Origin: Desulfocapsaceae bacterium
GTDB lineage: Bacteria; Desulfobacterota; Desulfobulbia; Desulfobulbales; Desulfocapsaceae
NCBI GenBank assembly: GCA_028697885.1
Contig: JAQVER010000001.1
Location: 19,970 to 83,969 of the forward strand
DNA length: 64,000 nt
Reading direction: 5' to 3'
Under the pieces are notes generated by a model, which was not told the DNA's origin, did not search any database, and saw nothing but the letters and a program-made list of their open reading frames with translations. A program made the position numbers and the translations under genes. Positions 4,029-50,496 of the stretch are shown here, piece after piece; position 1 is the stretch's first letter, and every line of letters starts with the position of its first letter.

Positions 4029-4658
4029 ATGTACAATTCGTCATGCAAAAGGAAACTGCAGCCAATCTATCGTAGCTGTAAATCCTTGATTCTGGCGTCA
4101 GCTTCACCTCGCCGGCAAGCATATCTCTTGGACCTTGGGATGGAATTTCGTGTCCAGAGTGCTGATATTGATGAAACACCATTTCCGGAAGAAAAGCCCC
4201 ATGCTTTTGTTCGACGTATGGCTGTGGATAAAGCCAGACCTATTATGGATCTTTATCCTGATGCTTGGGTTGTCGCCGCAGATACGGTGGTCAGCCTTGC
4301 AGATATCATTTTGGGAAAACCAAAAGACAGCGAGAATGCTGTGTCTATGTTGATGCAACTTTCCGGGATGGAGCATTGGGTGCAGACTGGGATATGCCTT
4401 GCCTGCCGTCAGGAAGAGGTTGTTGCTGTACAGTCGGTGAGTACCCGTGTTGTTTTCAATTCTTTCCCTGAGAAAGTGGCACAGGCGTATGTGGCAACCG
4501 GGGAACCTCTTGACAAGGCTGGTTCTTATGGGATTCAGGGCAAAGGGGCTTTTCTGGTTAAAGAGATTGAGGGCTCTTATTCAAACGTGGTGGGTTTACC
4601 GTTGTGTGAACTGTTGTTGATGCTTGAAAGCCATGGTGTAATTGCTGTTGCAGCATAA
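4029..4658 (+). CDS. maf: Maf-like nucleoside triphosphate pyrophosphatase / septum formation protein
   Basis: Shows LILASASPRRQAYLLDLG, ADTVV..ILGKP and GAYGIQG-like SYGIQGKGAFLVKEIEGSYSNVVGLP. Confidence 0.9.
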   Translation: MYNSSCKRKLQPIYRSCKSLILASASPRRQAYLLDLGMEFRVQSADIDETPFPEEKPHAFVRRMAVDKARPIMDLYPDAWVVAADTVVSLADIILGKPKDSENAVSMLMQLSGMEHWVQTGICLACRQEEVVAVQSVSTRVVFNSFPEKVAQAYVATGEPLDKAGSYGIQGKGAFLVKEIEGSYSNVVGLPLCELLLMLESHGVIAVAA

Positions 4659-5082
4659 TTTTTCATGAAAGCAGAGTGGGGCTGGCTGCCAGATGAGCCC
4701 ATGTAACGGTATGTCTCAATATCGTTACCAATGACGTGATTTGAAATGGGTTGAAGAGGGGCAAGAACTTGTGCAGAATAGATCAGGAAGAGCTTTGTGA
4801 GACGGATTCTGAGCCTTTGTCAAAAAATAACTGTAACTAGGCGGTAGTCATCATAACGGACCGCAATGAAAGTGATAAAGATATAACGGTTATTTCTTAA
4901 CCGCCCTTAAATAACAGGCCGCATTCCTTGACTTTTACGGTTTATTTGTGGTAGGCCAGTAATGATAATGATACGAATAAACTCTTTGCGGTGAGATTGG
5001 TGAATAGATGACAATTTATGAATGCAAGGGTTTTGAACAGTGAATAAAATCAGTATCTTGAAAAAGCATACAGGGTATTTTT

Positions 5083-8000
5083 ATGGTAAGTGTTGATCGG
5101 CAGCAGCACGCTTTAGAGGTCTTAAAGTATATCAACAAGGCGATCACTAATCTCCGCCTTTATCCTGAGCAGTCTGTACAGGTTGGTAATACAGTGGAGA
5201 AGGCCTACTCAGAGTTGAAGATCTTTTTACGTCTGTATGGAACCCTCAACTTTGGCTTGCACAAAGGTGTGCCGACTCTCGATGGCGTTATTTTTGAGAG
5301 AAGAGGAAGGGAACAGTTGGATGACTTGTCCCTGGTGGATTTTCTGGATAAGGCTGGACTTACGGGTATGACTCTGGTTCAAGGGCTTGACCGTAAACGA
5401 TTTAAGCAAATATTGTCTTTTTTTACCACCCATCACGAGCAGATTCAAAAATCCGGAGGGGTTGCTGCCTTTGTGAAAGACTCTGGCTTGGGCGCTGTTT
5501 TTCTTGGAGATAGTGATAGTGATGTGGTTCAGGAGCAGATTGTTACTCACAGCCTTAGTGATTATCTGCAACAATTAATGGTGAAGGGGGTTCGGCAGGA
5601 TCAGTTTCGTTCTTTACTCCGGCAGGGCGAGAATTGGCAGCAGAATGAGGATATAAGAAACGAATTGACAGGGGCAGATAAGGGTGTTGATGTCTTTGCC
5701 GCCGCTGTTTGTTTTGTGCTTCAGGATTTGCAACGGGCAGGTATCTATGAAGTTTCTCCTGGTTTTCGCCAGTTGTTGGAGAATATGACCGTTGCCTTGA
5801 AAGAAGAGGAAATTCGACAGGTCGCAGCTGGAGCTGCCTCGAAGTTGACTGTAAATCTTGATACGGCCTCCATGGCGCTGCTTGTTTGTCAGAGCTTTGC
5901 AACGCGTTTTGGTGAATCGTTTTTTGCCAGTCTTATGGCCTCCATTGACAAAGAATGCTTTCGCTCTCTGGTTGGTTTCTTGAGACAGGAAGGAGAGAGG
6001 CTGGATGGATCTCTGAGTCAGGTAGATGCAGAGTCCAGCCAACTAGTGAATGAGGCTTGTCAGCGCCTGATGGAAACGGGCAAAGGACGGCAGCTGCATG
6101 CCATAGAAAACATGGGCATGACGGAAAAACAACGGCAAAGTAAGCGGTTGCAGGCGGGATTGATCGCACTTACTCGAGGCAATCTGGATGGGCTAAGAAA
6201 CAAAGAGATATTGCTGCATCTCCCTGTCACTTTTGAGCGATTGATAATAAATAAAAAAGAAAATGTTGCTGCTGCCATTATCCAGACCCTTGTGGGGGGA
6301 CTCAAGCTTGAAGATGAGGAGTTGCGTCTTCGTTCAGGGCAGAGTCTTGGTTTAATTGGGGAGAAGTTGGTTGCCATGGATTATTGGGGGTGGTTGGAAA
6401 AATTAACCCCTACATTTCTTTTCTGGCTAAGACGCTCTGAAGATGTAGATGATGCCAGCACTCTGATTGTTAAGGTTTTACAGGACATTCTGACCCATGC
6501 TCAAAAAACAGGAAATGAGGATCTGGTTGATAAGATACTTCCCCTCTTCTATGCTATTCGCTCCGGGGCTTTAGGAAAAACAATAGAGATGAGGAATCTG
6601 GTGGGCCAGATTCAGGATAAGGCTGTTGACCGAAGCGTCCTTCAGGCCTACCTTGACGAGTCTTTTGAGAAACCGATTAAAGCGATGTGTTGTCAGAAGA
6701 TTGTTATGCATGGTCCGTTGGGAATCCAGTTTTTGTTGGACTCATTGTTAACCAACAACAGTAGGCCAGAGCGGATCCGGCTGTTGAAAATTCTTGCTGG
6801 TGTCGGTGGAGATTTTTCCTCACTTCTTCTGGCGCGATTGCAGGAGCCCATGCCCTGGTATGGAAAACGTAATCTGATCAGGTTACTGGCTGCAACTGGC
6901 AATGAAGAAGATGTTGTTGCTGTGCAGGGATATCTTACCCATGATGACCTTCGAGTTCAAAGTGAGGCCCTGGCCTGTATTTATAAACTCAGTGATCAAA
7001 AGAAGAAACAGTATCTTCTTGATGCGCTACCGCGGATCAGTGAAAAATTGAAGTTTCAGGTGGTTCAGGCCTTGGCCGCAGTGGTGGACGAAGAGGTGGT
7101 CGAGGTCCTGATTGAACTATTGCAGGATGAAAAGTATTTTTCCGATGATATCAAAACAACACTTCTGGTCAGTATCTGTGAGACTTTGGGGCGGAGTGGT
7201 TCTGCTCAGGCACAGAAGGTCCTGCAGAGCATGTCGGGAAAAGAAAATGTCCGTTCTAAAAAGATGACCAAAGAAGTATGGCAGGCAGTCCAGCGGGGGC
7301 TGGCATTGCTTGATGTGAGTCGCAGGCAGCAGAAAGAGAGGCATGCCGAGATTCAGAAGAGCTCAAAAAACGCGGTCAGGATGGTTCAGTCCGGGCAGAA
7401 CAGGTCAGGGGTATATACCCCGGTAACAAATCTGGCCGAAGAACAGGAACTCTATACGTTGCTTGCTCAAAACAAAAAAGTAGCAGCAAAAGGACTTCTT
7501 TTGGATCTGATTTCCACCATGAGCTATCTCCGGCAGTTTGATCAGGCAGAAGTGCTTTGTCAACGTTTGGTTGAGATTGACCCCTTGGCCATGGAAGATA
7601 TTATAAAAGCTACTGAACTGGTTGCGGAACAGAGAGCCGCCAGTAGTGATCAGGGACAGAGTCTGAGCTGGGTGGAACTCTATGACTTTCTGACCACTGA
7701 TGAATTCAAAACCTTGTATTCTTCCATGGAGCAGGTAACGTTTAGTCCTGATGAGAAAATTGTGAATCAGGGCGATCTGCAGCAACGGCTTTTCTTTATT
7801 AATAAGGGACGGGTTAAGCTGTTTTCCCGGGACCTTCATGGCAATGATATTCTGTTGAAAACGCTAGGGCCAGGGGAAATTTTTGGTTTAGATTCTTTTT
7901 TTAAGGCATCCGTCTGGACCGTCAATGCGGCAAGTGTCGGCACGGTTGACGTCTTTGTCCTGCCGCACGAGGCGCTTCGTGGATGGCAGAATAGCTTTCC

Positions 8001-8448
8001 TGGTCTGGAGTTAAAACTGCAGAATTTTTGTCAGCAGCTTGTTGAGCATGATACTCTGAAAGTTATGGCCATTGATCGTCGTGGTACCGAACGATTGAAG
8101 TTCTCAGGCCGGCTTGCGATGGCTATCCTTGACGATCAGGGTAAGGAGACAGGAACTGTCTTACAGGGTGAGAACGGTGACGTTTCGATCGGTGGTATTT
8201 CTTCCACGGTCCGCATCTCTCAAAAAAGAAACATTCGTCTGTTGCTCGGGCGGAAGATAGCTGTCCGTTTAGTGGATGGGCCGATTAACAGTCCGTTGAC
8301 GTCTGGGATGGCAGGTCTTGTGGTGGCGATCTATGTTGAGGATTCGAGCCACGAAGATTCGACGGCCTATGTGCATTATTCGATCCATGTCCAATTTGAT
8401 CAGCCCATGCAGGAAGCTGATCTGGCAGTAATCGCCTCTGGTGGTTGA
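5083..8448 (+). CDS. 1121-aa multidomain protein: long HEAT/armadillo-like repeat region, cyclic-nucleotide-binding-like domain, C-terminal PilZ domain
   Basis: PBS-lyase-type HEAT repeats are present (e.g. LLKILAGVGGDF..LLAATGNEEDVVAVQGYL..ALACIYKL). A cNMP-like beta-roll lies at about 7670-7990 (FSPDEKIVNQGDLQQRLFFINKGRVKLF...GPGEIFGLDSFF). PilZ signatures are RRGTER at 8077-8094 and DVSIGG (DxSxxG) at 8179-8196. Confidence 0.8.
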   Translation: MVSVDRQQHALEVLKYINKAITNLRLYPEQSVQVGNTVEKAYSELKIFLRLYGTLNFGLHKGVPTLDGVIFERRGREQLDDLSLVDFLDKAGLTGMTLVQGLDRKRFKQILSFFTTHHEQIQKSGGVAAFVKDSGLGAVFLGDSDSDVVQEQIVTHSLSDYLQQLMVKGVRQDQFRSLLRQGENWQQNEDIRNELTGADKGVDVFAAAVCFVLQDLQRAGIYEVSPGFRQLLENMTVALKEEEIRQVAAGAASKLTVNLDTASMALLVCQSFATRFGESFFASLMASIDKECFRSLVGFLRQEGERLDGSLSQVDAESSQLVNEACQRLMETGKGRQLHAIENMGMTEKQRQSKRLQAGLIALTRGNLDGLRNKEILLHLPVTFERLIINKKENVAAAIIQTLVGGLKLEDEELRLRSGQSLGLIGEKLVAMDYWGWLEKLTPTFLFWLRRSEDVDDASTLIVKVLQDILTHAQKTGNEDLVDKILPLFYAIRSGALGKTIEMRNLVGQIQDKAVDRSVLQAYLDESFEKPIKAMCCQKIVMHGPLGIQFLLDSLLTNNSRPERIRLLKILAGVGGDFSSLLLARLQEPMPWYGKRNLIRLLAATGNEEDVVAVQGYLTHDDLRVQSEALACIYKLSDQKKKQYLLDALPRISEKLKFQVVQALAAVVDEEVVEVLIELLQDEKYFSDDIKTTLLVSICETLGRSGSAQAQKVLQSMSGKENVRSKKMTKEVWQAVQRGLALLDVSRRQQKERHAEIQKSSKNAVRMVQSGQNRSGVYTPVTNLAEEQELYTLLAQNKKVAAKGLLLDLISTMSYLRQFDQAEVLCQRLVEIDPLAMEDIIKATELVAEQRAASSDQGQSLSWVELYDFLTTDEFKTLYSSMEQVTFSPDEKIVNQGDLQQRLFFINKGRVKLFSRDLHGNDILLKTLGPGEIFGLDSFFKASVWTVNAASVGTVDVFVLPHEALRGWQNSFPGLELKLQNFCQQLVEHDTLKVMAIDRRGTERLKFSGRLAMAILDDQGKETGTVLQGENGDVSIGGISSTVRISQKRNIRLLLGRKIAVRLVDGPINSPLTSGMAGLVVAIYVEDSSHEDSTAYVHYSIHVQFDQPMQEADLAVIASGG

Positions 8449-8524
8449 TATTTTAAACGCTGCTTTCCGGTCTCCATCTTTTTAGTTTTATCTCTTATTA
8501 TTCCACCAAAGGAGCTGCCTTGGT

Positions 8525-10303
8525 ATGGAGCCAAATGAGGCTGTATCCTTATTTTATCACGGGTATCTGCACAACATCTGTGAGGAAAAATCACATCTCA
8601 GCGCTGATTGTCCTTTCTGTCAAAAGCAGGGTAGAGACTATAGTGGCCGTTTGGTCGTATCTCTCAATAAGGCTGGTTTTTTTTATGGATATTTCCGCTG
8701 TCTGAATCATTGCGTGCCTGGCGGCTTTCCGCTCTGGTTTGCCAGGTTGATGGGAATCAACCCTGTTGATGTTCCAGGGTATGACCCTGATCGGGAACTT
8801 TTTTTAAGAAAGATAGATTATCCGATAGTCAATATCAATAATGAAATTAAGTTGTATCAGGACAGGCTCAGTGGAGAAATTCTAGCCCGCTTTCAGAAGG
8901 CGGGGATCGGTCCAGCTGTCCTTGCAGAGTTGAAAATTGGCTTTAATGGCCGTTATCTTGTCTATCCCTATGTGCAGGACGATGGCAATTGCTATGCCGC
9001 TCGTTGTGTCTTCCCAGAGAGGAAGGAAGATTTTTTCTGGCATGGCGATGAACAATTTTTTGGTGATCAGCACCATGTCTTTAATCTTCAGGATCTTCAG
9101 CGGTGTGAGAATGGTGCACTTTTTGTCTGTCAAGGAGAGGAAAATCTTCTTGCTCTGAAGCAGCTCGGCTTCCCCGGTGTTGCTGTTCCTGACTGCCACA
9201 GTCTGGAGGCTCTTGCTTCGGAGCATTTTTCCTTTGTGCATACCGTTTTTATTGTCATGGAGAATAATGCTGAAGCAGAGGCTGCGGCGCGCAGTGTTGC
9301 TGCCAGAATTGGCTATAAGGCCCGTCTCTTCAGGTGGCCAGCTTCTCTTGCAAAAGATTATAGTCTGTGGCAATTGGCCTGTGACAAGGGAAAGGATTTT
9401 AAGGCGGCTGTTTCGTCGATGATCCAGGCGTCCAGCGCCTTTTCGCCGTTCGCCAGTCCAAGGCGGGAGTATGATCGTTTTCTGGAGCAGCTGGCCTTGG
9501 AATCCGGTTCTGCTTATGGTGCTCTCAGCTCCGGGTTTCCTCAATTTGATCAGGCTCTGGAGGGCGTTCATGGAATTAATATTATCGGTGGTGCACCTAA
9601 ATCCGGAAAATCCATTTTTGCTATCCAGATTGCCACTGATATGGCACAGCGAAAGGTGCCGGTGCTCTATTATGATTTTGAGAATGGCAGACAGAAGATC
9701 TATCAACGGACCTTGAGCCGCTTGAGTCGTTTATCCACCGGCGATATCAAAAATGGTGTTGCAAGAGGTGTGGTCGGTCAAGATCTTGATCGTGCTCGCC
9801 AGGATTTTCAAGATATTCTCAGTTCTTTCCGAGTTGTAAATGATCGGAAACTTAACTCTGAGATCATGCGTCGTCATATAGACTTCATCCGTCATGAGAC
9901 TCGGAGTGATTATACAGTGGTGGTGATTGACAGTCTGCATAAGTTGCCTTTTAAAGATTTTACCGAGCAACGCTCTGGGATTGACGCCTGGTTGCGACAA
10001 CTGGAGGCTATCCGGGATGAGCTGCAGGTCTCTTTTGTGATCATCTCTGAATTGTCGCGGGGAGTTGGTGATGGTTATACGGATATGCCCCATATGGGAG
10101 TTTTTAAAGGTTCCGGAGATATTGAGTATAGTGCTGATAATGCCCTGGTCCTTGCCCCTGAGTGGGATTCTCTGGGGGCAGTCGTTAAAGAGCAACGGCA
10201 GAATAAGCTGTGGCTGGTGGCCAGTCGTGAACACAGTCCCGGCCTTGTGGCAAGGTATCGTCTGGATTATCCTTATTGGGGATTTGTGGAGCTGAATGAG
10301 TAG
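8525..10303 (+). CDS. T7 gp4/Twinkle-like protein: N-terminal Cys4 zinc ribbon, Toprim-like domain with substituted acidic residues, C-terminal DnaB-family (RecA-fold) ATPase
   Basis: The zinc ribbon is CPFC...CLNHC (8609-8713). Toprim-like elements are FVCQGEENLL (9128-9145) and IVMENNAEAEAAARSVA (9254-9274) where DxD..AG is expected. Walker A is GGAPKSGKS (9587-9613) and Walker B-like is VVVIDSLHKL. DnaB-like motifs are ISELSRGV and FKGSGDIEYSADNALVL. Confidence 0.8.
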   Translation: MEPNEAVSLFYHGYLHNICEEKSHLSADCPFCQKQGRDYSGRLVVSLNKAGFFYGYFRCLNHCVPGGFPLWFARLMGINPVDVPGYDPDRELFLRKIDYPIVNINNEIKLYQDRLSGEILARFQKAGIGPAVLAELKIGFNGRYLVYPYVQDDGNCYAARCVFPERKEDFFWHGDEQFFGDQHHVFNLQDLQRCENGALFVCQGEENLLALKQLGFPGVAVPDCHSLEALASEHFSFVHTVFIVMENNAEAEAAARSVAARIGYKARLFRWPASLAKDYSLWQLACDKGKDFKAAVSSMIQASSAFSPFASPRREYDRFLEQLALESGSAYGALSSGFPQFDQALEGVHGINIIGGAPKSGKSIFAIQIATDMAQRKVPVLYYDFENGRQKIYQRTLSRLSRLSTGDIKNGVARGVVGQDLDRARQDFQDILSSFRVVNDRKLNSEIMRRHIDFIRHETRSDYTVVVIDSLHKLPFKDFTEQRSGIDAWLRQLEAIRDELQVSFVIISELSRGVGDGYTDMPHMGVFKGSGDIEYSADNALVLAPEWDSLGAVVKEQRQNKLWLVASREHSPGLVARYRLDYPYWGFVELNE

Positions 10304-10476
10304 GAGAGAGTGCGGAGTAATGTTATTATTCGGTGAAGAGAGTGGTCAAAGATTATTGTATTCCATTTTATGAAGAGATATAGTAAAAAAATGTGTTATG
10401 GGTTGTCTTCTCAATGTTTGTTGTATTGAGTATTGGGTTGGTGAAGGGAATAATGAAAAGAGTAGAGGACTAAAGA

Positions 10477-11160
10477 ATGCGACGAATAACTACTGGTATT
10501 GTGGCTGGTCTGCTCCTGCTAAGCGCTCATCATGCGCAGGCCTTTGATGAAAAAGGAGGAAATGCGCTTTGGGGCAAATATGCCATCCAAACATGTCGAT
10601 CCTGCCATAAAGAAAAAGGGTTGAGCAGTCTGGAGCCAGATGAAAAGAGCGCTGCGGAGTGGGAATCGTTTTTTGTCGATCGGTATAAGAAATTGCGGGA
10701 TATGAACCATGATTTCTCAGCAATAGGGATTAATGAACGTCAGTTGGAAAATATTCATCGTTACCTGCTTGAAGATTCAATGAAAAGAGAGGCTGGCAAG
10801 GCTCCTGAGACCACTGCGTTAAAAACCATTGGGGCAAAGCCTAAAAAGGTGCTGGCAGAGGATGACGAAAAAATGGAGGGGGCTGGTCTGTTTAATGCTT
10901 CCGCTGGAGATGCTAGGAAGGGGCGCTATGTTTTTCGAAGGTGTCTGACCTGCCATAAAAAAAATGATGCGCCGATTATCAGTCCTGCTGATCGAACCAA
11001 GGCGGCCTGGGATCGTTATTTTGCCAATGATTTTAAAAAATTGAAAAAAGATATGCCCAAGTTTGATACCTACGGGTTTACTATTGGTCAGATGGAGCAT
11101 TTGCATCAGTTTGTTCTGGAGTACGCACTGGATGCATCAAGACCTAAGACCTGTGAATAA
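10477..11160 (+). CDS. Periplasmic diheme c-type cytochrome (internally duplicated)
   Basis: Signal peptide MRRITTGIVAGLLLLSAHHAQA. The two CxxCH motifs are CRSCH (10594-10608) and CLTCH (10942-10956). The halves align: AAEWESFFVDRYKKLRDM..ERQLENIHRYLLE versus KAAWDRYFANDFKKLKKDM..IGQMEHLHQFVLE. Confidence 0.85.
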   Translation: MRRITTGIVAGLLLLSAHHAQAFDEKGGNALWGKYAIQTCRSCHKEKGLSSLEPDEKSAAEWESFFVDRYKKLRDMNHDFSAIGINERQLENIHRYLLEDSMKREAGKAPETTALKTIGAKPKKVLAEDDEKMEGAGLFNASAGDARKGRYVFRRCLTCHKKNDAPIISPADRTKAAWDRYFANDFKKLKKDMPKFDTYGFTIGQMEHLHQFVLEYALDASRPKTCE

Positions 11161-15982: not shown

Positions 15983-17923
15983 TTAGTATTTTTCTTGCTC
16001 CCACATCTCGGGTAAGAATCGGACAACCCTGTTTCTTCCTTCGTTCTTGGCTCGATAGAGGGCTACGTCGGCAAATTTTATCGCCTCCCAGAAACCTTCT
16101 GTGTCTCCGGGGAATTCACTGGCGCCAATACTCAGAGTCTTTTTCAGGGTACCGTCAGGGACATTGATGACTGTAAGTTCCATGGTGCTACGAATTCTTT
16201 CGGCGAGGTCCAGAATATCTTGACTGCTTTTCACATCAATAAGCAGGATTACAAACTCTTCCCCACCATAACGGATGACCATATCTGATGCCCTGACGCA
16301 ACTTTTTAACACTTCTGCTGTTTTGATCAGGACCACATCTCCGGTCTCATGACCATAGGTGTCATTGACTTCTTTGAAGAAGTCCATGTCACACATCAGG
16401 ATGCCAACCATGGTTGCCCGGCGCATAGTGCTGGCCACCAAGGTGTCGGAGTAGGTCTCTAGGAAGCGTCTGTTGTAAAGATCGGTCATCGGGTCACGCA
16501 AGGTGGTCTCCTGCAGGGCCGAAGCAAAGCGTTTCCCCTCAATAACGGGTGTTGCCTCCTTGATGTAGCGGGAGGCCCTTTTTACCAGATACTCAAATTT
16601 CTTCCGTTCTTCTGCGGAGCTTCCCCGTTCAAGGAGCAATTGTACAACCCCGACCACTTTGCCGTTGGCCATCATGGGAGTGCAATGATGTTCAAATCGG
16701 TCTCCGTGTGGGAATTTTTTGCAGATCTCAGGAAATTCGAGGGAGGAAATATCATGCCCCGTGCGTTTTGCCCGGCAGAAGTTGGCATCGTCAAAAATCT
16801 CGGGGCTGCATACATTGTCAAAGTTCGAGGCATAGGCCACGGACATATTGTTTTTTGTGCCGGTAACTTCGTAAATATAAAGCTTATCCAGATGATAACG
16901 ATCGCAAAGGAGGTGGGCCAGACGCTGGTTGACTTCGGTCGTGGATTCTTCCTCCTCGATGATGGCCTTGAAGGTGTTGAGGCTGAAGGTATTGTCCACC
17001 ATGATGTTGAGCTGATGGGCCAGTTGTCCGACCTCGTCATTACTCTTGACCGTGATTCTCTGACAACGCTCACTGTCGCCTTTGGCAATCCAGGTGATTT
17101 TTTTCAGGATATCCTGCAGTGGCTTGGCGATAAGTAAGATGTAGAGCAGGGTGGCAACAGCCAGGATTGCGGCAATGCAGATTCCGATAAAAAGAGAACG
17201 GGAGGAGGTGGTGGTGATGATATTGTCCAGTTTTGTAAATTGATCCGTATGCTGGTTATTACTTGCCACGGCCATGGTAATACCGAGATCATATAGTTTG
17301 TCAAGGGAGTCGGTCAGGTCCGTCGTCAGCGTTTCCTTTTTCTCTGTAGGGCACTGATTGACCAGGCATTCGGTCAGGGCATGAAATGCTTGGTCGAGTA
17401 AACGTGATTCTTGGGCCACTGAGGCGACCAGAGTGTTCATCTGCGGATCCGTTGATTTCTGGACAGTGAACACATCAAGGGTCTTGTTGGCAACCTTGGC
17501 CACGTCCAATACTGGCCCCCCGTTCTGCAGAGCGTTGATCATGGTCTTTAGGTCACCCAGTCGTCGTTCATTGGCCAAGATGTTGCGGTTGTCTTCTTTG
17601 AGTTGCGGGGCATTGAGGGTGTAGATAAGTGAGATCTTGAATCCGTTGATGTTGCGTAAAATGTACTGACTTATCTTGTATTGAGGGATGGCTATATCTC
17701 TGATGACATGGTTTCGGTCTGCAATCCTTTGCAGGGCGACCGTATTAAAAGTGATCAACAGGGCGAAGCCAAGGAGGGAAACTACCAGCATGCCAATCAA
17801 TTTTCCGGTGATGCCTGTATCCAGGCATTTTTGGAAAAAAGATCCCAAGAGTGTATCTGATGAACAGGTTATGCCAAGCAGAGAGAACTTTTTGTTCGTA
17901 GAGATATTTGTTGCAGAAGGCAT
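15983..17923 (-). CDS. Membrane diguanylate cyclase (periplasmic sensor, HAMP, GAF-like, GGDEF)
   Basis: Two TM helices flank about 190 aa. The HAMP is PLQDILKKITWIAKGD..VGQLAHQLNIMV. The catalytic motif is RYGGEEF at about 16254-16268, with the I-site RASD five residues upstream. Confidence 0.88.
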   Translation of the reverse strand: MPSATNISTNKKFSLLGITCSSDTLLGSFFQKCLDTGITGKLIGMLVVSLLGFALLITFNTVALQRIADRNHVIRDIAIPQYKISQYILRNINGFKISLIYTLNAPQLKEDNRNILANERRLGDLKTMINALQNGGPVLDVAKVANKTLDVFTVQKSTDPQMNTLVASVAQESRLLDQAFHALTECLVNQCPTEKKETLTTDLTDSLDKLYDLGITMAVASNNQHTDQFTKLDNIITTTSSRSLFIGICIAAILAVATLLYILLIAKPLQDILKKITWIAKGDSERCQRITVKSNDEVGQLAHQLNIMVDNTFSLNTFKAIIEEEESTTEVNQRLAHLLCDRYHLDKLYIYEVTGTKNNMSVAYASNFDNVCSPEIFDDANFCRAKRTGHDISSLEFPEICKKFPHGDRFEHHCTPMMANGKVVGVVQLLLERGSSAEERKKFEYLVKRASRYIKEATPVIEGKRFASALQETTLRDPMTDLYNRRFLETYSDTLVASTMRRATMVGILMCDMDFFKEVNDTYGHETGDVVLIKTAEVLKSCVRASDMVIRYGGEEFVILLIDVKSSQDILDLAERIRSTMELTVINVPDGTLKKTLSIGASEFPGDTEGFWEAIKFADVALYRAKNEGRNRVVRFLPEMWEQEKY

Positions 17924-26313: not shown

Positions 26314-26784
26314 ATGGGAAACAGCAACTTAACAGCCAGCAGATTTCGCGGTAGATCGGAACATGCGCTTGATATCAAAGGACGTTTGAATGTCCCCAGC
26401 AGATTCAGGGACGTCCTTGCGCAGTATGATTCCGAGGAGCTGATGGTGACCAGTTGGGGCGCCCATCTTCGCGTCTTCCCCGTCTCTCAGTGGGAGATTC
26501 TGGAAAATAAGTTGTTGACCAATGGCCGTGAACAGCCTGGTCTGACCGGTTTTATCCGTCTGGTGGTCTCCGGGGTTACTCCCTGTCAACCTGATAAGCA
26601 GGGGCGGGTGTTGCTTCCTCCCTCGCTGCGCAGTGAGGTCGGAATAGTCAAGGATGTCGTGTTGACCGGGATGCTCGATTATGTGGAGATCTGGGACAAA
26701 GAGGCATGGGAGCTGGAGAATCAGGCCACCCGGGAGAACTTTAGTGATTATACGGAGAGTTTGGCCAAATTGGGTATTTTCTGA
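26314..26784 (+). CDS. mraZ: Transcriptional regulator MraZ
   Basis: It carries two DxxxR repeats, ALDIKGRLNVPSRFR and PDKQGRVLLPPSLR, and occupies the first position of the dcw cluster. Confidence 0.93.
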   Translation: MGNSNLTASRFRGRSEHALDIKGRLNVPSRFRDVLAQYDSEELMVTSWGAHLRVFPVSQWEILENKLLTNGREQPGLTGFIRLVVSGVTPCQPDKQGRVLLPPSLRSEVGIVKDVVLTGMLDYVEIWDKEAWELENQATRENFSDYTESLAKLGIF

Positions 26785-30388: not shown

Positions 30389-33300
30389 ATGGATAGTGTA
30401 AGAGCTGAGGAGCAGTTTGTTGAAGGGTGCAGTTGCAAGGGATATTTGCTTGAGACGCTTCTGGCTTCTGTCACTTATTCACTTTTGGGTAAAAAACTGC
30501 CAGCAGGCATAGTCGTCTCTGGTGTGACCGTTGATTCCCGGAGAATAGAGGCAGGATCGCTTTTTGTGGCCCTTGCCGGAAGCAGGACGGATGGGCATGC
30601 CTATCTCGAGCAGGTGATGGCCAGTAGGGCTACGGTATTGGTGGTTGAAGAAGGCCGGGTGAGGCCAGAACAGTTTGCCGATTGTCGTCAGTGTGTGATT
30701 GTAGTTGCGGACAGCCATCTGGCCTATGCGCAGATTGCAGCCAATCTGTATGGCCAGCCGGCACAGGGATTGACTCTGGTCGGAGTCACCGGCACCAATG
30801 GCAAGACCACGGTCAGTTATCTCCTTGAGAGTGTACTGAGACAGCTGGGTCTGGCGGTTGGGGTTATCGGCACGATTAACTATCGCTATCGTGATGCCAG
30901 GGGACAGGATGTTGAGATTCCTGCCCCTTTCACGACACCTGAACCACTCTTGCTTCAGTCTCTCCTGCGGCAAATGGCTGATGCCGGTGTAACCCATGTG
31001 ATCATGGAGGTTTCCTCTCACGCCCTGGTCCAGCGCCGTCTTGGCGATCTGCAATTTGATGTGGTTGCCTTTACCAATCTCTCGCGTGATCATCTGGACT
31101 ATCATCAGGACATGGATGATTATTTTGCCGCCAAGGCCCTCCTTTTTCGTGACCATCTGCAAAAGGGTGGTAAGGCTGTTATTACCCGGACAGCAGCTCA
31201 TGATCCTGAAGAAGAAAAAAGGACGCAACAATTGCTTGGCTTATGTGAGGCTCAGGGTGCTCAGGTGTGGCAGTGTGGCGGGAACGGTGATATTTATCCT
31301 TTGAGTGTCCAGTCAGGTTTGGATTCCACCACCATAACCCTGCATACTTCCGAAGATGAAATCCAGCTTACGACTTCTCTGGTGGGTGATTTTAATGTGG
31401 CAAACCTGTTGACTGTGATGGGAATTGGGCTGGCCCTGGGAGTAGAGGTACAAGCTTTGTCTCTGATGCTGGGGCAGGCATCCGGGGCGCCAGGACGCCT
31501 GCAGCGGATAATGGCCGCAGAACAGGAAAGGCCCTTCCGGCCAGCGGTGTTTGTTGATTATGCCCATACCCCGGATGCCCTGCAAAAGGTTTTAGAAACT
31601 CTTTCCCGGCTTCCGCATCGGAGATTGATCTGTGTTTTTGGCTGCGGCGGTGATCGGGACAAGGGAAAACGGGCTATTATGGGTGAGATCGCCGCTCATT
31701 GCAGCGATGTGGTAGTGGTCACCGACGATAATCCCCGCAGTGAATCACCCCAGGAGATAGTGGCTCAGATTGTCTCCGGTGTCCGTTTGACGGATCTGGA
31801 AAAACGGGAACCTTCCTGGCTTATGGCTTCGGTCGGAGATGAACAGGGATTTCTGGTGCTTCATGATCGTACCCAGGCGATATCCCTGGCCATTGGAGCG
31901 GCAACGGTCGATGATATTGTGCTTATTGCCGGAAAAGGACATGAGCGATATCAACTTGGGGCGGAGGGTACGCGTTTCTTTGATGACAGTCTTGAGGCCA
32001 AGAAAGGACTGACCAGCTGGAGACTTGAAAGTCTTTGTCTCGCTGCTCACGGTGAGCTGGTCGGAGAGAGGAGAGGAATAACTGATCTTGGCTCAGTGGT
32101 CACCGACAGCCGGAAAGTGGTAGCGGGTGATATCTTTGTGGCCTTGGCCGGAGAGAGGTTTGACGGTCATGATTTTCTGCAGCAGGTGGCCTCTGCCGGT
32201 GCAGGATGTCTTGTGATTCGCCGGGAAACTCCTTTAGAGGCGCTTCCTGCCATTCCCTGTCTGTTGGTGGATGATACTTTACAGGCCTTGGGCGATCTGG
32301 CCGCATATCGGCGGCAGGTGATGAAGGCGATCAGTGGGCCGTTGGTGGTGGGGATTACCGGTAGTTGTGGCAAGACGACGGTCAAGGAGATGACTGCCGC
32401 AATCTTTGAACAGCATTGGCAGGGGTTGAATCCAGGGACTCAGGCCTCTTTTGATCAGGTGTTGAAGACCAGGGGCAATTTTAATAATCTTATCGGGTTA
32501 CCTCTTTCTCTCTTGCCAATGAATCCTGGCCACAGAGCTGCTGTTCTGGAGATGGGGATGAACCGGCCAGGTGAGATTGACAGGCTTGTCCGCATTGCTG
32601 ACCCTGATATTGCCTGTATTGTCAATGTCCATGCCGCGCATCTCGAGGGGCTGCACTCCATCGAAGGGGTGGCACGAGCTAAGGAAGAGCTCTTTGCCGG
32701 AAGCGGCCAAGACAGTACCCTGGTGATTAATCTGGATGATCCCCATGTGCGGAACTGTGCTGAAAGGTATTCTCAGAAAAAGGTTTTGTATGCAGCAGGT
32801 GAAGAAGGAATGCGTCACAGACCTCAGGTCTGGGCTTCTGACTTAGGGAGTGAGGGAAGCAGTGCCCAGACCTTTGTCCTTCATATTGCATTGGAGACAA
32901 TCTCTGTGACCTTGCATGTTCCTGGTGTTCATAATATCTCCAATGCTGTGGCTGCAGCGGCTATTGCCCATGCTGCAGGTCTCGGTATAGGAGTGATCGG
33001 GGCAGGGCTTACTGTATTCCAGCCAACTGATAAACGAATGCAGATTGTCAAAGGCATGGGAGGTTTGTATATTCTCAATGATACGTATAATGCCAATCCG
33101 GCCTCAATGCGGGCAGGTCTTGCGACCCTTGCTCAGCAAGGTAATGGAAGGCGGGTTGCCATTCTGGGAGATATGCTGGAACTGGGACCGACCAGCGCGG
33201 AGGCCCATCGGGAAGTGGGAGGGTATGCGGCAGGTCAGCTCATTGATTATCTGGCCCTGGTTGGTAGTTTTGCGGCAGAGACAGCCACGGGGGCGAGAAT

Positions 33301-33475
33301 GGCAGGCATGGAAAGTCTGCGGATCAGGGTTTTTCAGGAGAAGAAGGATGTCGTGTCCTGGATTGAAGAGCTTCTGAGCGCGCGTCAGTTACAGGCTGGT
33401 GACTGGCTATTGGTCAAAGGTTCAAGGGGGATGCGCCTTGAAGAGGTGGTAGAACAGTTGCAGGAGAGTTTGTAG
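30389..33475 (+). CDS. murE-murF: Fused UDP-MurNAc-tripeptide synthetase MurE / UDP-MurNAc-pentapeptide synthetase MurF (1028 aa)
   Basis: The MurE half has GVTGTNGKTTVSYLL and VTDDNPRSE. The junction is near 32010 (..EAKKGLTSWRLESLCLAAHGELVG..). The MurF half has VTDSRKVVAGDIFVAL, GITGSCGKTTVKEM and NDTYNANPASM. There is no stop between the halves. Confidence 0.9.
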   Translation: MDSVRAEEQFVEGCSCKGYLLETLLASVTYSLLGKKLPAGIVVSGVTVDSRRIEAGSLFVALAGSRTDGHAYLEQVMASRATVLVVEEGRVRPEQFADCRQCVIVVADSHLAYAQIAANLYGQPAQGLTLVGVTGTNGKTTVSYLLESVLRQLGLAVGVIGTINYRYRDARGQDVEIPAPFTTPEPLLLQSLLRQMADAGVTHVIMEVSSHALVQRRLGDLQFDVVAFTNLSRDHLDYHQDMDDYFAAKALLFRDHLQKGGKAVITRTAAHDPEEEKRTQQLLGLCEAQGAQVWQCGGNGDIYPLSVQSGLDSTTITLHTSEDEIQLTTSLVGDFNVANLLTVMGIGLALGVEVQALSLMLGQASGAPGRLQRIMAAEQERPFRPAVFVDYAHTPDALQKVLETLSRLPHRRLICVFGCGGDRDKGKRAIMGEIAAHCSDVVVVTDDNPRSESPQEIVAQIVSGVRLTDLEKREPSWLMASVGDEQGFLVLHDRTQAISLAIGAATVDDIVLIAGKGHERYQLGAEGTRFFDDSLEAKKGLTSWRLESLCLAAHGELVGERRGITDLGSVVTDSRKVVAGDIFVALAGERFDGHDFLQQVASAGAGCLVIRRETPLEALPAIPCLLVDDTLQALGDLAAYRRQVMKAISGPLVVGITGSCGKTTVKEMTAAIFEQHWQGLNPGTQASFDQVLKTRGNFNNLIGLPLSLLPMNPGHRAAVLEMGMNRPGEIDRLVRIADPDIACIVNVHAAHLEGLHSIEGVARAKEELFAGSGQDSTLVINLDDPHVRNCAERYSQKKVLYAAGEEGMRHRPQVWASDLGSEGSSAQTFVLHIALETISVTLHVPGVHNISNAVAAAAIAHAAGLGIGVIGAGLTVFQPTDKRMQIVKGMGGLYILNDTYNANPASMRAGLATLAQQGNGRRVAILGDMLELGPTSAEAHREVGGYAAGQLIDYLALVGSFAAETATGARMAGMESLRIRVFQEKKDVVSWIEELLSARQLQAGDWLLVKGSRGMRLEEVVEQLQESL

Positions 33476-42041: not shown

Positions 42042-43268
42042 ATGCCGTTTAGAATGGCGGAAACAGAAGGGGTTGCAGTGGTAAAGGTTATTGGTGTCGG
42101 CGGTGGCGGCGGGAATGCCATCAACACCATGGTTAACAATAAGCTGCAGGGTGTTGAGTTTATTGTGGCCAATACGGATAAGCAGGCCCTGAATCAGTCT
42201 CTGGCGGATATCTGTCTGCAGATTGGGCCCAGTATCACCAAAGGGTTGGGTGCAGGCACTGATCCTGATATCGGCGCCCAGGCCGCTCATGAGTCTCTCG
42301 AGGAGCTCAAGAAGGTCCTGAAGGGCAGTGATATGGTCTTTGTCGCAGCCGGGCTTGGCGGTGGTACCGGAACAGGAGCCGCTCCGGTTGTGGCTAAAGT
42401 GAGTAAGGAAATGGGTGCGCTCACTGTGGCAGTGGTAACCAAACCCTTTCATTTTGAAGGTAAGTCCCGGATGAACAATGCCGAGGCAGGTTGGGAAGAA
42501 TTGCGAAAATATGCGGATACGATCATTACCGTTCCCAATGATCGACTTCTCTCACTGATGCAGAAGAATACCAGGCTTTCCGATATGCTCGTCATGGCCG
42601 ATCTTGTTCTGTTGCAGGCGGTTAAGGGGATAACAGACCTGATCAATGTGCCGGGAATGATTAATGCTGATTTTGCAGATCTGCGCACAGTCATGCGGGA
42701 AGTGGGGCCTGCCATCATGGGATCAGGCGCTGCCGTTGGCGAAAACAGGGCAACCGAGGCGGCCAAACGGGCCATTGACAATCAACTCCTTGAAGATGTG
42801 GGGATAGATGGTGCCCGCGGCTTAATTATCAATGTCTCTGCAACACAAGAGAGTTTGACTCTGGCTGAATATATGGAGGTATCGGCTCTCATTCAAAGTA
42901 AGGTGGATGAGGATGCCAAGGTTGTTCTGGGAGTATTGTACGATGAAACCCTTGGTGATGAATTGCGTGTTACAGTGATCGCGACGGGAATAGGCAATGT
43001 GGTCAAGAAAAATGAGCCGATCACTCTGATGGATGAACCACGTAAGACAGTGAAAATTTCAGCCACGCAGGAGACCCCTGTTGCACCGGCTCCAGCCAAT
43101 CCGCGGCCAACCTTTGTCACTCCTCTGCTGCAATCTAATTTTGAAGGTTTTGACAACCTCGGTGTCTCCTCGTCCCGTAAAGAGGTGGGGCGCAGTCAAA
43201 AGGAATCCCGGCCCTGGAATGAGGATTATCTGGAGACGCCAACGTATCTTCGGAAAAAGGCAAATTGA
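42042..43268 (+). CDS. ftsZ: Cell division GTPase FtsZ
   Basis: Shows [29 protein letters not shown] and [13 protein letters not shown]. The C-terminal peptide is [13 protein letters not shown]. Confidence 0.97.
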
Positions 43269-48570: not shown

Positions 48571-48879
48571 GGTGTTTTCTTCTGGTGTATGATGTGTGAG
48601 ATCCGGTGGCAGGGGCGAGAATGGATGAAAATCATCTCTTCTCGCCTTGATTAAAGCCGCCGAAAGCTTCTTTCCTCAACCAAAGACAGGCTAGAGGATA
48701 GTTTTATTCTGCTTTTCTGGACAAGTTTGATCTTCTTGTGATATATATACACCTTTCTACATGGTTGTTAACGAGAAGTTTAATTCCGCGATGAAATGGT
48801 TTGTCGGGCAGTATCGTTTCAGTTTTTGTGTAACTGTAAGATATCCATTATTAACCAATAATATTTGGCAGGATGTGAT

Positions 48880-50496
48880 ATGACGGATTTAAATCCCCAG
48901 CATATGATTGAAGAGATACAGGATAATATAAAAACCGGCGATGCCATGAAAACGCAGTTGGTTCTTTCCCATCTGGGTGAGGTTGATAAGAAGACTCAGA
49001 ATCGTTTGATTTATGAGTTGACCCGTGGTGAGGTACCGTTCAGTATTCCTCAACTTCTCTATCTTCTTGCTGATCATGCCGTGCTGGCTGCTGAGCTGCC
49101 GATTATCAAGGAGACGCTGATCTCACAACTCCTGGCCTATCCAGAACTGCTGAGTGGCTTTCTTATAGATCCCAAGATCAAGGGGAAACAGTATCTGATT
49201 CAGATCGCGGGTGAGCTTCGCTCCGATGATTCCACTCAGGCTTTGATGGAGCTGGTTGCCGGTTCCCAGGACGAGGCGGAGATAAAACTTGTCCTGGAGA
49301 CTCTTGGTCTGATCGGTGATCCTGAGGCCATTAATCTTCTTACCGATTATCTCTATGCCGCTAATCGAGAGTTGATTATTGCCGCCGTCCAGGCTCTTGG
49401 TCAGGTGGGAACACCGACTGCCATGCACAGGCTGGCCGAGCGGATGGGGACGGATAATGAACTTGATTTCATGATTCTTTCCATCTTTGCTGATGTACAG
49501 GATCAGGTGTCGCTGGAGAAGTTGAATGAAACCCTGCGCTCCCATTATGCCCATATGCGGACCTATGCGAAACAAGAGATTGTACGTATCGGGGCGAAGG
49601 CTGTGCCTAATCTCATTGAGAACCTCTTGCATGAAGATCCTGATTTTCAGATTCATACCTTGAATGTCTTGGGTGAGATTGGAGATGAATCGGCAATCAT
49701 GCCAATCAGAAAGTTACTGGGACGTGACCCCAAGAGCGCTAATGTGCGTTTTGCAGCCTATGAGTCACTGGCCCTTCTGCCTTTGCGCAAAGGGGCCTAT
49801 ACCTTGACCGCCGGACTGACCGACAAGGAGGACCATGTCTGTATAGCGGCTGCCAGGGCCATAGAACGGAATTATTCCGATATCCTGGTGGCAGGCATTA
49901 AAAATCTCTTGATGGAGAAGGATGATGATGCCCATCATATCACCAAAATCATTGTTAATGGTCAGGTTGATAAAATATTTATGAGTCTTGCCGATGAGCC
50001 TTACTTTCAGGAAATGGCCATGATTTATCTGCCCCATGCCCATAAGGATATCCTTCAACATTATCATACCTTGTTGAAGAATGCCGGCATGGATGATTTT
50101 GCCAGAAAACTGGTTGGTACTGAAGAGGTGTCGGTTAAACTGAAAGTGGTGGCTGTGGATGATTCCCGGATGATCCTTAATATTTATAAGGCGACCCTGC
50201 ATGAACTGGGCTATGATCCCGTGTTGTTTGAGTTTCCTGCATCGGCCCTTGAGTGGTTGGCCAAAGAGAAACCTGCCATGGTCCTGACGGATCTGAATAT
50301 GCCGGAGATTACCGGGGTAGGTTTGACGGAAGGGATACGGAAAAAATATTCTGCCACAGAGCTGCCGGTGATTATGGTTACCACCCAGAATGAGGTTCAG
50401 GATAACAAGGCTGCCCTGTCCGCAGGAGTGAACAAAATTATTCAGAAGCCCTTTAATGCAGCATCATTGAAAGCGGCTATGTCCGAGTTTATCTGA
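48880..50496 (+). CDS. HEAT-repeat protein with C-terminal response-regulator receiver domain
   Basis: PBS-lyase-type HEAT repeats are present (TLGLIGDPEAINLL, ALGQVGTPTAMHRL, VLGEIGDESAIMPIRKLL). The REC domain is KVVAVDDSRMI...MVLTDLNMPEITG...VIMVTT...KPF. ATG 48880 is preferred over the track's TTG 48865. Confidence 0.82.
   Translation: MTDLNPQHMIEEIQDNIKTGDAMKTQLVLSHLGEVDKKTQNRLIYELTRGEVPFSIPQLLYLLADHAVLAAELPIIKETLISQLLAYPELLSGFLIDPKIKGKQYLIQIAGELRSDDSTQALMELVAGSQDEAEIKLVLETLGLIGDPEAINLLTDYLYAANRELIIAAVQALGQVGTPTAMHRLAERMGTDNELDFMILSIFADVQDQVSLEKLNETLRSHYAHMRTYAKQEIVRIGAKAVPNLIENLLHEDPDFQIHTLNVLGEIGDESAIMPIRKLLGRDPKSANVRFAAYESLALLPLRKGAYTLTAGLTDKEDHVCIAAARAIERNYSDILVAGIKNLLMEKDDDAHHITKIIVNGQVDKIFMSLADEPYFQEMAMIYLPHAHKDILQHYHTLLKNAGMDDFARKLVGTEEVSVKLKVVAVDDSRMILNIYKATLHELGYDPVLFEFPASALEWLAKEKPAMVLTDLNMPEITGVGLTEGIRKKYSATELPVIMVTTQNEVQDNKAALSAGVNKIIQKPFNAASLKAAMSEFI

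Follow-up and report, generated by a model that had tools for sequence, protein, structure and literature searches.

A core chromosomal gene for a predicted primase-dead, Twinkle-like ATPase and its PilZ-scaffold neighbour in Desulfocapsaceae

The DNA analysed here, referred to as the window, is a stretch of 64,000 nucleotides (nt) from a Desulfocapsaceae bacterium (assembly GCA_028697885.1, contig JAQVER010000001.1, positions 19,970-83,969, forward strand). It carries two adjacent open reading frames (ORFs), gene 1 and gene 2 (Table 1), for which an earlier reading of the letters alone (the original prediction) had proposed an undescribed two-gene module. Gene 2 is predicted to encode a primase-dead, Twinkle-like motor with intact ATPase motifs. 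Judged by its sequence relatives, it is inherited vertically as part of the core genome of the Desulfobulbales and the Desulfobacterales, and it is more widespread and more important than the original prediction recognised. Gene 1 encodes a large scaffold protein that ends in a cyclic-nucleotide-binding (CNB)-like domain and a PilZ domain. The explanation favoured here, held with slightly less than even confidence, is that a domesticated ring ATPase or helicase has been placed under the control of cyclic di-GMP (c-di-GMP) in the Desulfocapsaceae, by a mechanism that we infer below.

The order of domains foreseen for gene 2, a zinc ribbon, a primase core with a Toprim fold and a DnaB-type (superfamily 4, SF4) ATPase, was confirmed by profile searches, by PHROG 239 and by Foldseek comparison of an AlphaFold2 (AF2) model. 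Pfam DnaB_C was matched at residues 334-543 (E 5e-24) and PHROG 239 ('DNA primase/helicase') at residues 107-552 (E 6e-28). A profile built from the gene 2 family matched Aquifex DnaG, Twinkle (residues 25-470) and T7 gp4 (114-281), and distant relatives of gene 2 match Pfam Zn_ribbon_DnaG. The AF2 model (predicted local distance difference test score, pLDDT, 85) found its best PDB match in T7 gp4 (5ikn, E 2e-21, template-modelling score up to 0.67), followed by Twinkle (7t8c and 7t8b) with DnaB behind; in BFVD the best matches were phage primase/helicases, aligned over the full length. Weak matches to Pfam KaiC were also obtained. Current annotation pipelines label gene 2 homologues merely 'DnaB-like C-terminal domain' or 'AAA ATPase'.

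Owing to the loss of its catalytic acidic residues, the Toprim domain can be identified only from its fold and by profile. Its EGxxD motif reads Q203-G-E-E-N207 (9131-9145) and the DxD motif reads E246-N-N248 (9260-9268). Position 207 is Asn in 57 of the 81 close homologues and in 41 of the 49 sequences of the Desulfobacterales type described below, and Asp stands at position 248 in a single one of the 81 and in none of the 49. Plasmid relatives retain the Toprim E, D, D and D. The description of gene 2 as a phage-type primase-helicase therefore stands for the fold and the order of domains but not for the acidic ligands of the Toprim site. The ATPase is preserved, with a Walker A motif (GGAPKSGKS, 9587-9613), the Walker B residue D469, the catalytic glutamate E386 and a conserved R512; Walker A, D469, E386, R512 and K528 are invariant in the 81, the 49 and six further sequences. 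Within the family, the N-terminal domains still share 58-63% identity although they are non-catalytic, so they remain under selection, for some other role.

More than 1200 homologues of gene 2 were found in the databases, the best 120 of them 60-92% identical. When one genome per GTDB species was scanned, 469 species had a relative of gene 2, and the best 80 of these 469 were all Desulfocapsaceae or Desulfobulbaceae. Carriers include Desulfocapsa sulfexigens DSM 10523, Desulfofustis glycolicus DSM 9705 and Desulfobulbus sp. Tol-SR. Identity is 59-94% within Desulfocapsaceae/Desulfobulbaceae and about 50% in the Desulfobacterales. Across about 80 species gene 2 occupies a fixed position among housekeeping genes, in the conserved order DUF362-SDR-maf-(gene 1)-gene 2-(cytochrome, DUF3373, Tll0287-like)-trmFO-3D-mutL; the flanking genes for the cytochrome and DUF3373 and the gene clusters c8 and c12-c16 vary between loci. 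The mean identity to the window protein is 73% for TrmFO, 67% for gene 2, 59% for Maf and 48% for gene 1.

A scan of metagenomes gave about 70 loci whose homologues of gene 2, 43-56% identical, are full-length and just as primase-dead, a clade that database names put in the Desulfobacteraceae, the Desulfatiglandaceae and the Desulfobacterales. Gene 1 and maf were nearby in none of these Desulfobacterales-type loci. There the neighbours of gene 2 are alaS, dsbD, pcm, an HD-domain gene and fabH, the gene looks monocistronic, and one copy resides in a genome of 2.44 Mb. Overall, gene 2 was found in housekeeping contexts in about 150 loci, which contradicts the idea, put forward earlier as a possible refutation, that its homologues always lie in prophages or plasmids. 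The contigs of the distant homologues P0187, P0193 and P0167 were too short for informative context. A chromosomal primase-dead family of the gp4/Twinkle type, kept at about 50% identity over two orders of sulfate reducers and sulfur disproportionators, represents a family-level unknown in bacterial DNA metabolism.

Some loci carry additional genes 3' of gene 2. In a Desulfobulbaceae metagenome-assembled genome (L021, WSXV01000001, 7910-9319) two conserved ORFs of about 100 aa, toxin-antitoxin-like by eye, lie right after gene 2 and are followed by a 219-aa duplicate of the 3' end of gene 2, with 96% identity. The same two ORFs also lie 3' of gene 2 in L019 and L023.

Phage, plasmid and IMG/VR collections yielded no close relatives of gene 2, only matches of 21-31% identity over generic DnaB-like ATPase domains, and a recent mobile origin of the window copy was rejected on this ground. 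The nearest canonical relatives, with intact DnaG-type zinc finger and Toprim, are 26-33% identical and lie on circular-looking elements of about 9.8 kb, where a Rep3-type initiator gene is found immediately 5' of the primase-helicase gene and a serine recombinase is also present. From their gene content these elements are probably small plasmids that resemble the ancestor of the gene 2 family. In metagenome contigs L103-L108 (for example, Ga0209203_1000639) the elements of about 9.8 kb were assembled as tandem repeats, with an intact Toprim (EGEKD/DND).

Compared with T7 gp4 and the proteins of PHROG 239, gene 2 has the same domain order, the linker included. It differs in the loss of the Toprim metal ligands, in its C4 zinc ribbon, which stands in place of the DnaG-type CHC2 of the closest plasmid relatives with canonical Toprim, in the Lys found where DnaB has its arginine finger, and in being a fixed chromosomal core gene outside any mobile replication module. 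Gene 2 resembles, and descends from, primase-helicases of the gp4 type but has neither a competent Toprim nor a mobile replication context. Like DnaB, it has a homologous RecA ATPase, in which Walker A and B, the catalytic Glu and the SxLSR and SGxIExxAD motifs could be aligned. Unlike DnaB, it has no DnaB N-terminal domain (no Pfam match), carries Lys rather than Arg at the finger position, and shows the family motifs YYDFENG and FKxSGDIEYSAD together with a pseudo-primase N-terminus. Its NCBIfam scores (64.5 bits against a cut-off of 385 for TIGR00665, and 76 against 499 for phage_DnaB) fall short of the equivalog cut-offs by a factor of 5-10.

Gene 2 retains an invariant C4 zinc ribbon, in contrast to human Twinkle, which no longer has its zinc-binding cysteines. 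The domestication of gene 2 was also independent and bacterial, and in one lineage the gene has a putative c-di-GMP receptor as partner. The likeness to Twinkle lies in the profile and structure matches given above and in the route taken: a protein derived from gp4 was recruited by a cellular genome and kept the primase fold in a catalytically inactive form. In animal Twinkle the helicase is active and the primase was lost through changes in the primase domain (PMC3610141).

Gene 1 has 46 homologues at 33-100% identity; its product is 100% identical to a protein from a Desulfocapsaceae metagenome-assembled genome. In the AF2 model (pLDDT 81) a small N-terminal alpha/beta domain is followed by an alpha-solenoid of roughly 700 aa that extends to about residue 770, and then by helical repeats, a CNB barrel and a second beta-barrel at residues 1005-1105. 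When compared with the PDB, the family profile matched alphaRep/PBS-HEAT designs at residues 593-725. The N-terminal 560 residues gave no informative match in Pfam, NCBIfam, Foldseek, PHROGs or the profile comparison with the PDB. The Foldseek search with the complete model was dominated by the CNB domain, and the alpha/beta domain and the solenoid had no informative match in it.

The C-terminus of gene 1 had been described as a cyclic nucleoside monophosphate (cNMP)-binding-like fold and a PilZ domain with both signature motifs, and this was upheld by Pfam, by conservation and by the barrels of the model. The CNB-like domain has sequence and fold matches in the PDB to CRP, GlxR and PKG. In the alignment with PKG, its phosphate-binding cassette has FGL instead of FGE and W945-T946-V instead of RTA (R[ST]A); the replacements are conserved in the family, with W945 nearly invariant and T946 invariant. 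Since the hallmark Glu and Arg of the pocket are lost, canonical binding of cyclic AMP (cAMP) or cyclic GMP (cGMP) is unlikely. In the PilZ domain, R1000, R1004, S1035 and G1038 are invariant among the orthologues and D1033 is nearly so. Pfam PilZ matches 18 of 32 gene 1 orthologues (best E 1e-6), and short paralogues of gene 1 exceed its gathering threshold. On these motifs, c-di-GMP is the credible ligand and the sensing of cAMP or cGMP is doubtful: gene 1 fits the sequence definition of a PilZ receptor and does not fit the pocket definition of a cNMP receptor. The suggested sensing of c-di-GMP or cNMP is thereby narrowed to its c-di-GMP part, with the CNB-like and PilZ domains as a putative c-di-GMP receiver unit.

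A stand-alone cNMP-binding protein of 149-151 aa (cluster c8) is encoded divergently upstream of maf at positions 5085-5534 of locus L002 and in about 22 related loci; the window does not have this gene. Pfam cNMP_binding was matched by the D. sulfexigens copy, and the representative keeps FGE and the cassette Arg (R-F-A, by eye).

PilZ adaptors acting on ATPases or motors are exemplified by YcgR and by the Xanthomonas PilZ-FimX-PilB system. Gene 1 resembles them in its PilZ barrel with RxxxR and D/NxSxxG, in the adjacent second beta-barrel and in its linkage to an ATPase of hexameric type. It differs in having as its partner an ATPase of the DnaB family instead of one that serves secretion or flagella, and in that PilZ is fused to both a CNB-like barrel and a HEAT solenoid of 850 aa. 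The literature searched held no PilZ/DnaB/helicase or PilZ/HEAT/cNMP architecture and no description of the gene 2 family or of its pairing with gene 1, and the curated libraries NCBIfam and PADLOC gave no specific family match for the pair. The statement that no named system corresponds to the pair thus agrees with everything that was searched.

Of the 79 informative species loci of the Desulfocapsaceae/Desulfobulbaceae, 63 have a gene-1-like gene as the immediate 5' neighbour of gene 2. The distance between the two is -11 to +365 nt in the orthologues, and about 15 species show an overlap of the gene 2 start with the upstream ORF. Eight loci carry, immediately 5' of gene 2, a second CNB-PilZ paralogue that is short (339-620 aa), and where the gene-1-like gene is duplicated it is the short copy that adjoins gene 2. 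The pairing is kept when the identity of gene 2 has dropped to 49% (in one lineage) and that of gene 1 to 33%; gene 2 was downstream in every gene 1 context examined, several gene 1 homologues lie on contigs of the same length as those of gene 2 homologues, and no rearrangement separating the two was seen across the loci compared. In 15 species without gene 1, maf is directly followed by gene 2. These species share a distinct synteny and probably form a single clade. Gene 1 is also absent beside the gene 2 homologues of 39-42% identity. The two-gene module therefore holds as a conserved pairing in the Desulfocapsaceae-type lineage but not for the family, in most of which gene 2 occurs without gene 1. 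The same division applies to the condition set beforehand, that the pairing would not be conserved in relatives: it was kept in the Desulfocapsaceae-type lineage and is absent from the 15-species clade and from the Desulfobacterales-type loci.

A GGDEF cyclase had also been pointed out in the window (15983-17923, minus strand). Its RASD-x5-GGEEF is intact, but it lies near the pair in only 7 of about 85 loci examined, the window included, and it was rejected as part of the system. In another locus (L005, 9810-10277), P0170, a 39%-identical gene 2 homologue without gene 1, is followed after 49 nt by part of a class III nucleotidyl cyclase (155 aa; Pfam Guanylate_cyc, E 1e-5); this neighbour is another possible link to a nucleotide second messenger.

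The arrangement of the pair in the window is operon-like. The sequence AAGGAG at 8509-8514 is a ribosome-binding site 5' of the ATG of gene 2, and no convincing terminator was found in the gap between the genes, where the sole candidate is weak, overlaps the stop codon and has three GC pairs. In an alignment of nine orthologous loci, a block about 120-175 nt 5' of gene 1 (with TTGACT at 4928-4933) was the only strongly conserved part of the spacer between maf and gene 1, the remainder being divergent. The block probably serves the gene 1-gene 2 unit as promoter or operator. An Rfam scan of 4400-10700 (E <= 1) gave no match, and thus no sign of a riboswitch or leader RNA belonging to any known family.

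The favoured explanation may be set out as follows. A plasmid primase-helicase would have been captured by the chromosome of an ancestor of the Desulfobulbales and the Desulfobacterales. It would then have lost its primase chemistry and been kept as a core gene under strong purifying selection, a counterpart in bacteria to the Twinkle of metazoans. Later, the Desulfocapsaceae-type lineage would have placed a c-di-GMP receptor scaffold 5' of gene 2 and co-expressed the two, gene 1 being a lineage-specific partner in the Desulfocapsaceae and their close relatives. Since the intact RecA ATPase is retained, gene 2 is expected to form a ring and to use ATP for movement along single-stranded DNA or RNA, with the zinc ribbon and the dead primase domain acting as a structural or recognition module. 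Gene 1 and gene 2 would be transcribed together from the promoter-like block and would often be translationally coupled. The N-terminal solenoid of gene 1, of about 850 aa, could provide a docking surface. Binding of c-di-GMP at RxxxR/DxSxxG would re-orient the PilZ barrel against the neighbouring CNB-like barrel and so alter the way in which the scaffold holds, recruits or inhibits the gene 2 ring. The c-di-GMP level would in this way be linked to a DNA transaction, for example chromosome handling, recombination or fork restart. A c-di-GMP-gated two-gene machine would be, at best, a lineage-specific regulatory layer. A more pointed version was also considered, although it is rather unlikely: recruitment of the plasmid protein in parallel to mitochondrial Twinkle as an accessory replicative or fork-restart helicase, possibly essential, its dead primase domain now used to recognise DNA or a partner, with the PilZ-HEAT scaffold of the Desulfocapsaceae binding the ring directly and c-di-GMP as the on-off switch.

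Several observations weigh against c-di-GMP control of a translocating ring. The residue at the position of the DnaB arginine finger is an invariant Lys (K528), and the basic DnaB loop KRSDKRP is aligned with GDGYTDM, which is acidic or neutral; with a Lys finger and a non-basic loop, DNA translocation is not assured. The PilZ domain of the window protein itself was below significance in Pfam. Most members of the gene 2 family do without gene 1, so gene 1 is possibly a mere neighbour. When gene 2 was compared between species with and without gene 1 for the signature of an interface, only four conservative substitutions came to light, with no domain-specific relaxation, and no interface could be inferred. 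Much of the conservation of the pair is confounded by the general synteny of related genomes, and the species without gene 1 fall in one clade and thus represent few independent events.

The main alternative, rather unlikely in our estimate, is that the genes are independent neighbours by inherited synteny, gene 1 being an effector that acts elsewhere (envelope, motility or redox) and gene 2 a helicase-like housekeeping gene. This would account for the occurrence of gene 2 without gene 1 in the Desulfobacterales-type loci and the 15-species clade, for a gene 2 that is unchanged where gene 1 is missing, and for the much faster evolution of gene 1 (mean identity of 48%, against 70% for gene 2 in this comparison); moreover, adjacency is weak evidence where the entire region is syntenic. 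It does not readily explain that the start of gene 2 overlaps a gene-1-like ORF in about 15 species, that duplicated CNB-PilZ copies always lie directly 5' of gene 2, that gene 2 lay downstream in each gene 1 context examined, or that no rearrangement was seen to separate the pair although the cytochrome, DUF3373, c8 and c12-c16 genes around it vary. A different doubt concerns the motor itself, which could be a non-translocating ATPase of the KaiC/FlaH/RAD55 type within a c-di-GMP signalling complex, with no nucleic-acid substrate. The weak Pfam KaiC matches, the Joint Genome Institute (JGI) names given to homologues ('KaiC/GvpD/RAD55 family RecA-like ATPase' or 'FlaH'), the dead primase site, the Lys finger and the altered loop are all in its favour. 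Nevertheless, it is improbable: the best full-length sequence and structure matches are primase-helicases and DnaB, not KaiC, and the invariant C4 zinc ribbon and the conserved primase fold are nucleic-acid-recognition modules in gp4 and DnaG. In addition, K528 and E509 are shared with plasmid relatives that have a canonical primase, which marks them as traits of the subfamily and not as signs of a lost helicase function.

Gene 2 might instead be a component of the replisome, either a second or replacement replicative helicase or a factor interacting with DnaB or DnaG, with gene 1 coupling replication to c-di-GMP. Its phylum-level conservation, close to that of TrmFO, its retention in the 2.44-Mb genome, the position of the D. 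sulfexigens copy at 49-71 kb from the start of the chromosome record and the ancestral role in replication on Rep3 plasmids are consistent with such a part. DnaB is, to our knowledge, universal in bacteria. Gene 2 scores far under the NCBIfam DnaB cut-offs, has no DnaB N-terminal domain and, with its Toprim ligands lost, would have no primase activity to contribute, and this role is regarded as quite improbable. Least probable of all, with very little in its favour, is a system of defence against phages or plasmids, or a remnant of a prophage or plasmid replication module. The fold of gene 2 does derive from replication proteins of mobile elements, and one distant homologue (42% identity) adjoins a DNA methylase. 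PADLOC gave its best matches to mad8 and to a reverse transcriptase (RT)-associated DnaG-like protein, and these were faint and non-significant (E ~5e-4, 17-18 bits over ~85-100 residues). A defence system was rejected on these scores and on the fixed, syntenic position of gene 2, which is not that of a variable defence island. The defence role proposed in the original prediction conflicts in the same way with vertical inheritance at 59-94% identity and with a conservation close to that of TrmFO. The reading as a mobile remnant is already contradicted by this conservation and synteny; the window has no integrase, transposase, phage or plasmid genes, and the relatives in the phage, plasmid and IMG/VR collections are confined to the ATPase domain.

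If the domestication is as supposed, gene 2 would be an independent second example of the evolutionary route that gave mitochondrial Twinkle. We know of no reported case of direct control of a DnaB-family helicase by c-di-GMP, and none was found in the literature searched; the pairing with a PilZ scaffold therefore offers a concrete handle on whether c-di-GMP acts directly on a helicase-type motor. Should the two proteins not interact, gene 2 would still be a conserved helicase-like gene and gene 1 a large orphan c-di-GMP effector.

Table 1. Coordinates of the features of the gene 1-gene 2 locus in the window.
Feature	Position	Strand	Residues	Basis or remark
Conserved non-coding block	4907..4966	+		Candidate promoter or operator; alignment
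Gene 1	5083..8448	+	1121 aa	ORF; scaffold/receptor (predicted)
HEAT_2 repeats in solenoid	6823..7029	+	581-649	Pfam, E 1e-10
cNMP-binding-like beta-barrel	7735..7980	+	885-966	Pfam cNMP_binding, E 5e-15
PilZ domain	8080..8397	+	~1000-1105	RxxxR at 8080-8094, DxSxxG at 8179-8196
Gene 1-gene 2 spacer, 76 bp	8449..8524	+		Sequence; holds the ribosome-binding site of gene 2
Gene 2	8525..10303	+	592 aa	ORF; predicted primase-dead gp4/Twinkle-like protein
C4 zinc ribbon	8609..8713	+	C29, C32, C59, C63	Four Cys invariant in 81 close and 49 Desulfobacterales-type sequences
Primase core and Toprim-like fold	8834..9364	+	~104-280	Family profile against T7 gp4 (74-245), DnaG and Twinkle
DnaB-type RecA ATPase	9524..10300	+	334-592	Pfam DnaB_C; alignment to Aquifex and Bacillus DnaB

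The layout of the locus agreed exactly with what had been noted from the letters. The two co-directional ORFs have spacers of 424, 76 and 173 bp before, between and after them; maf, with its end at 4658, precedes them, and a di-haem cytochrome ORF with two CxxCH motifs follows from 10477. The 45 large ORFs of the window are of housekeeping type and include ruvAB, a complete dcw cluster from mraZ to ftsZ, PFOR, tRNA-modification enzymes and sensor kinases. The scan of these ORFs also bore out the reported absence of mobile-element genes.

The GC skew is positive in every 2-kb bin of the window and the large ORFs are mostly on the plus strand, which suggests that the entire window lies on one replichore with its genes co-oriented with replication. 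A second HEAT-scaffold signalling protein is encoded at 48865-50496 (plus strand); it has 543 aa, three HEAT_2 repeats and a C-terminal response-regulator receiver domain. Within the dcw cluster (mraZ at 26314, ftsZ at 43268) there is a 1028-aa ORF at 30389-33475 (plus strand) with two sets of Mur-ligase domains, an apparent MurE-MurF fusion.

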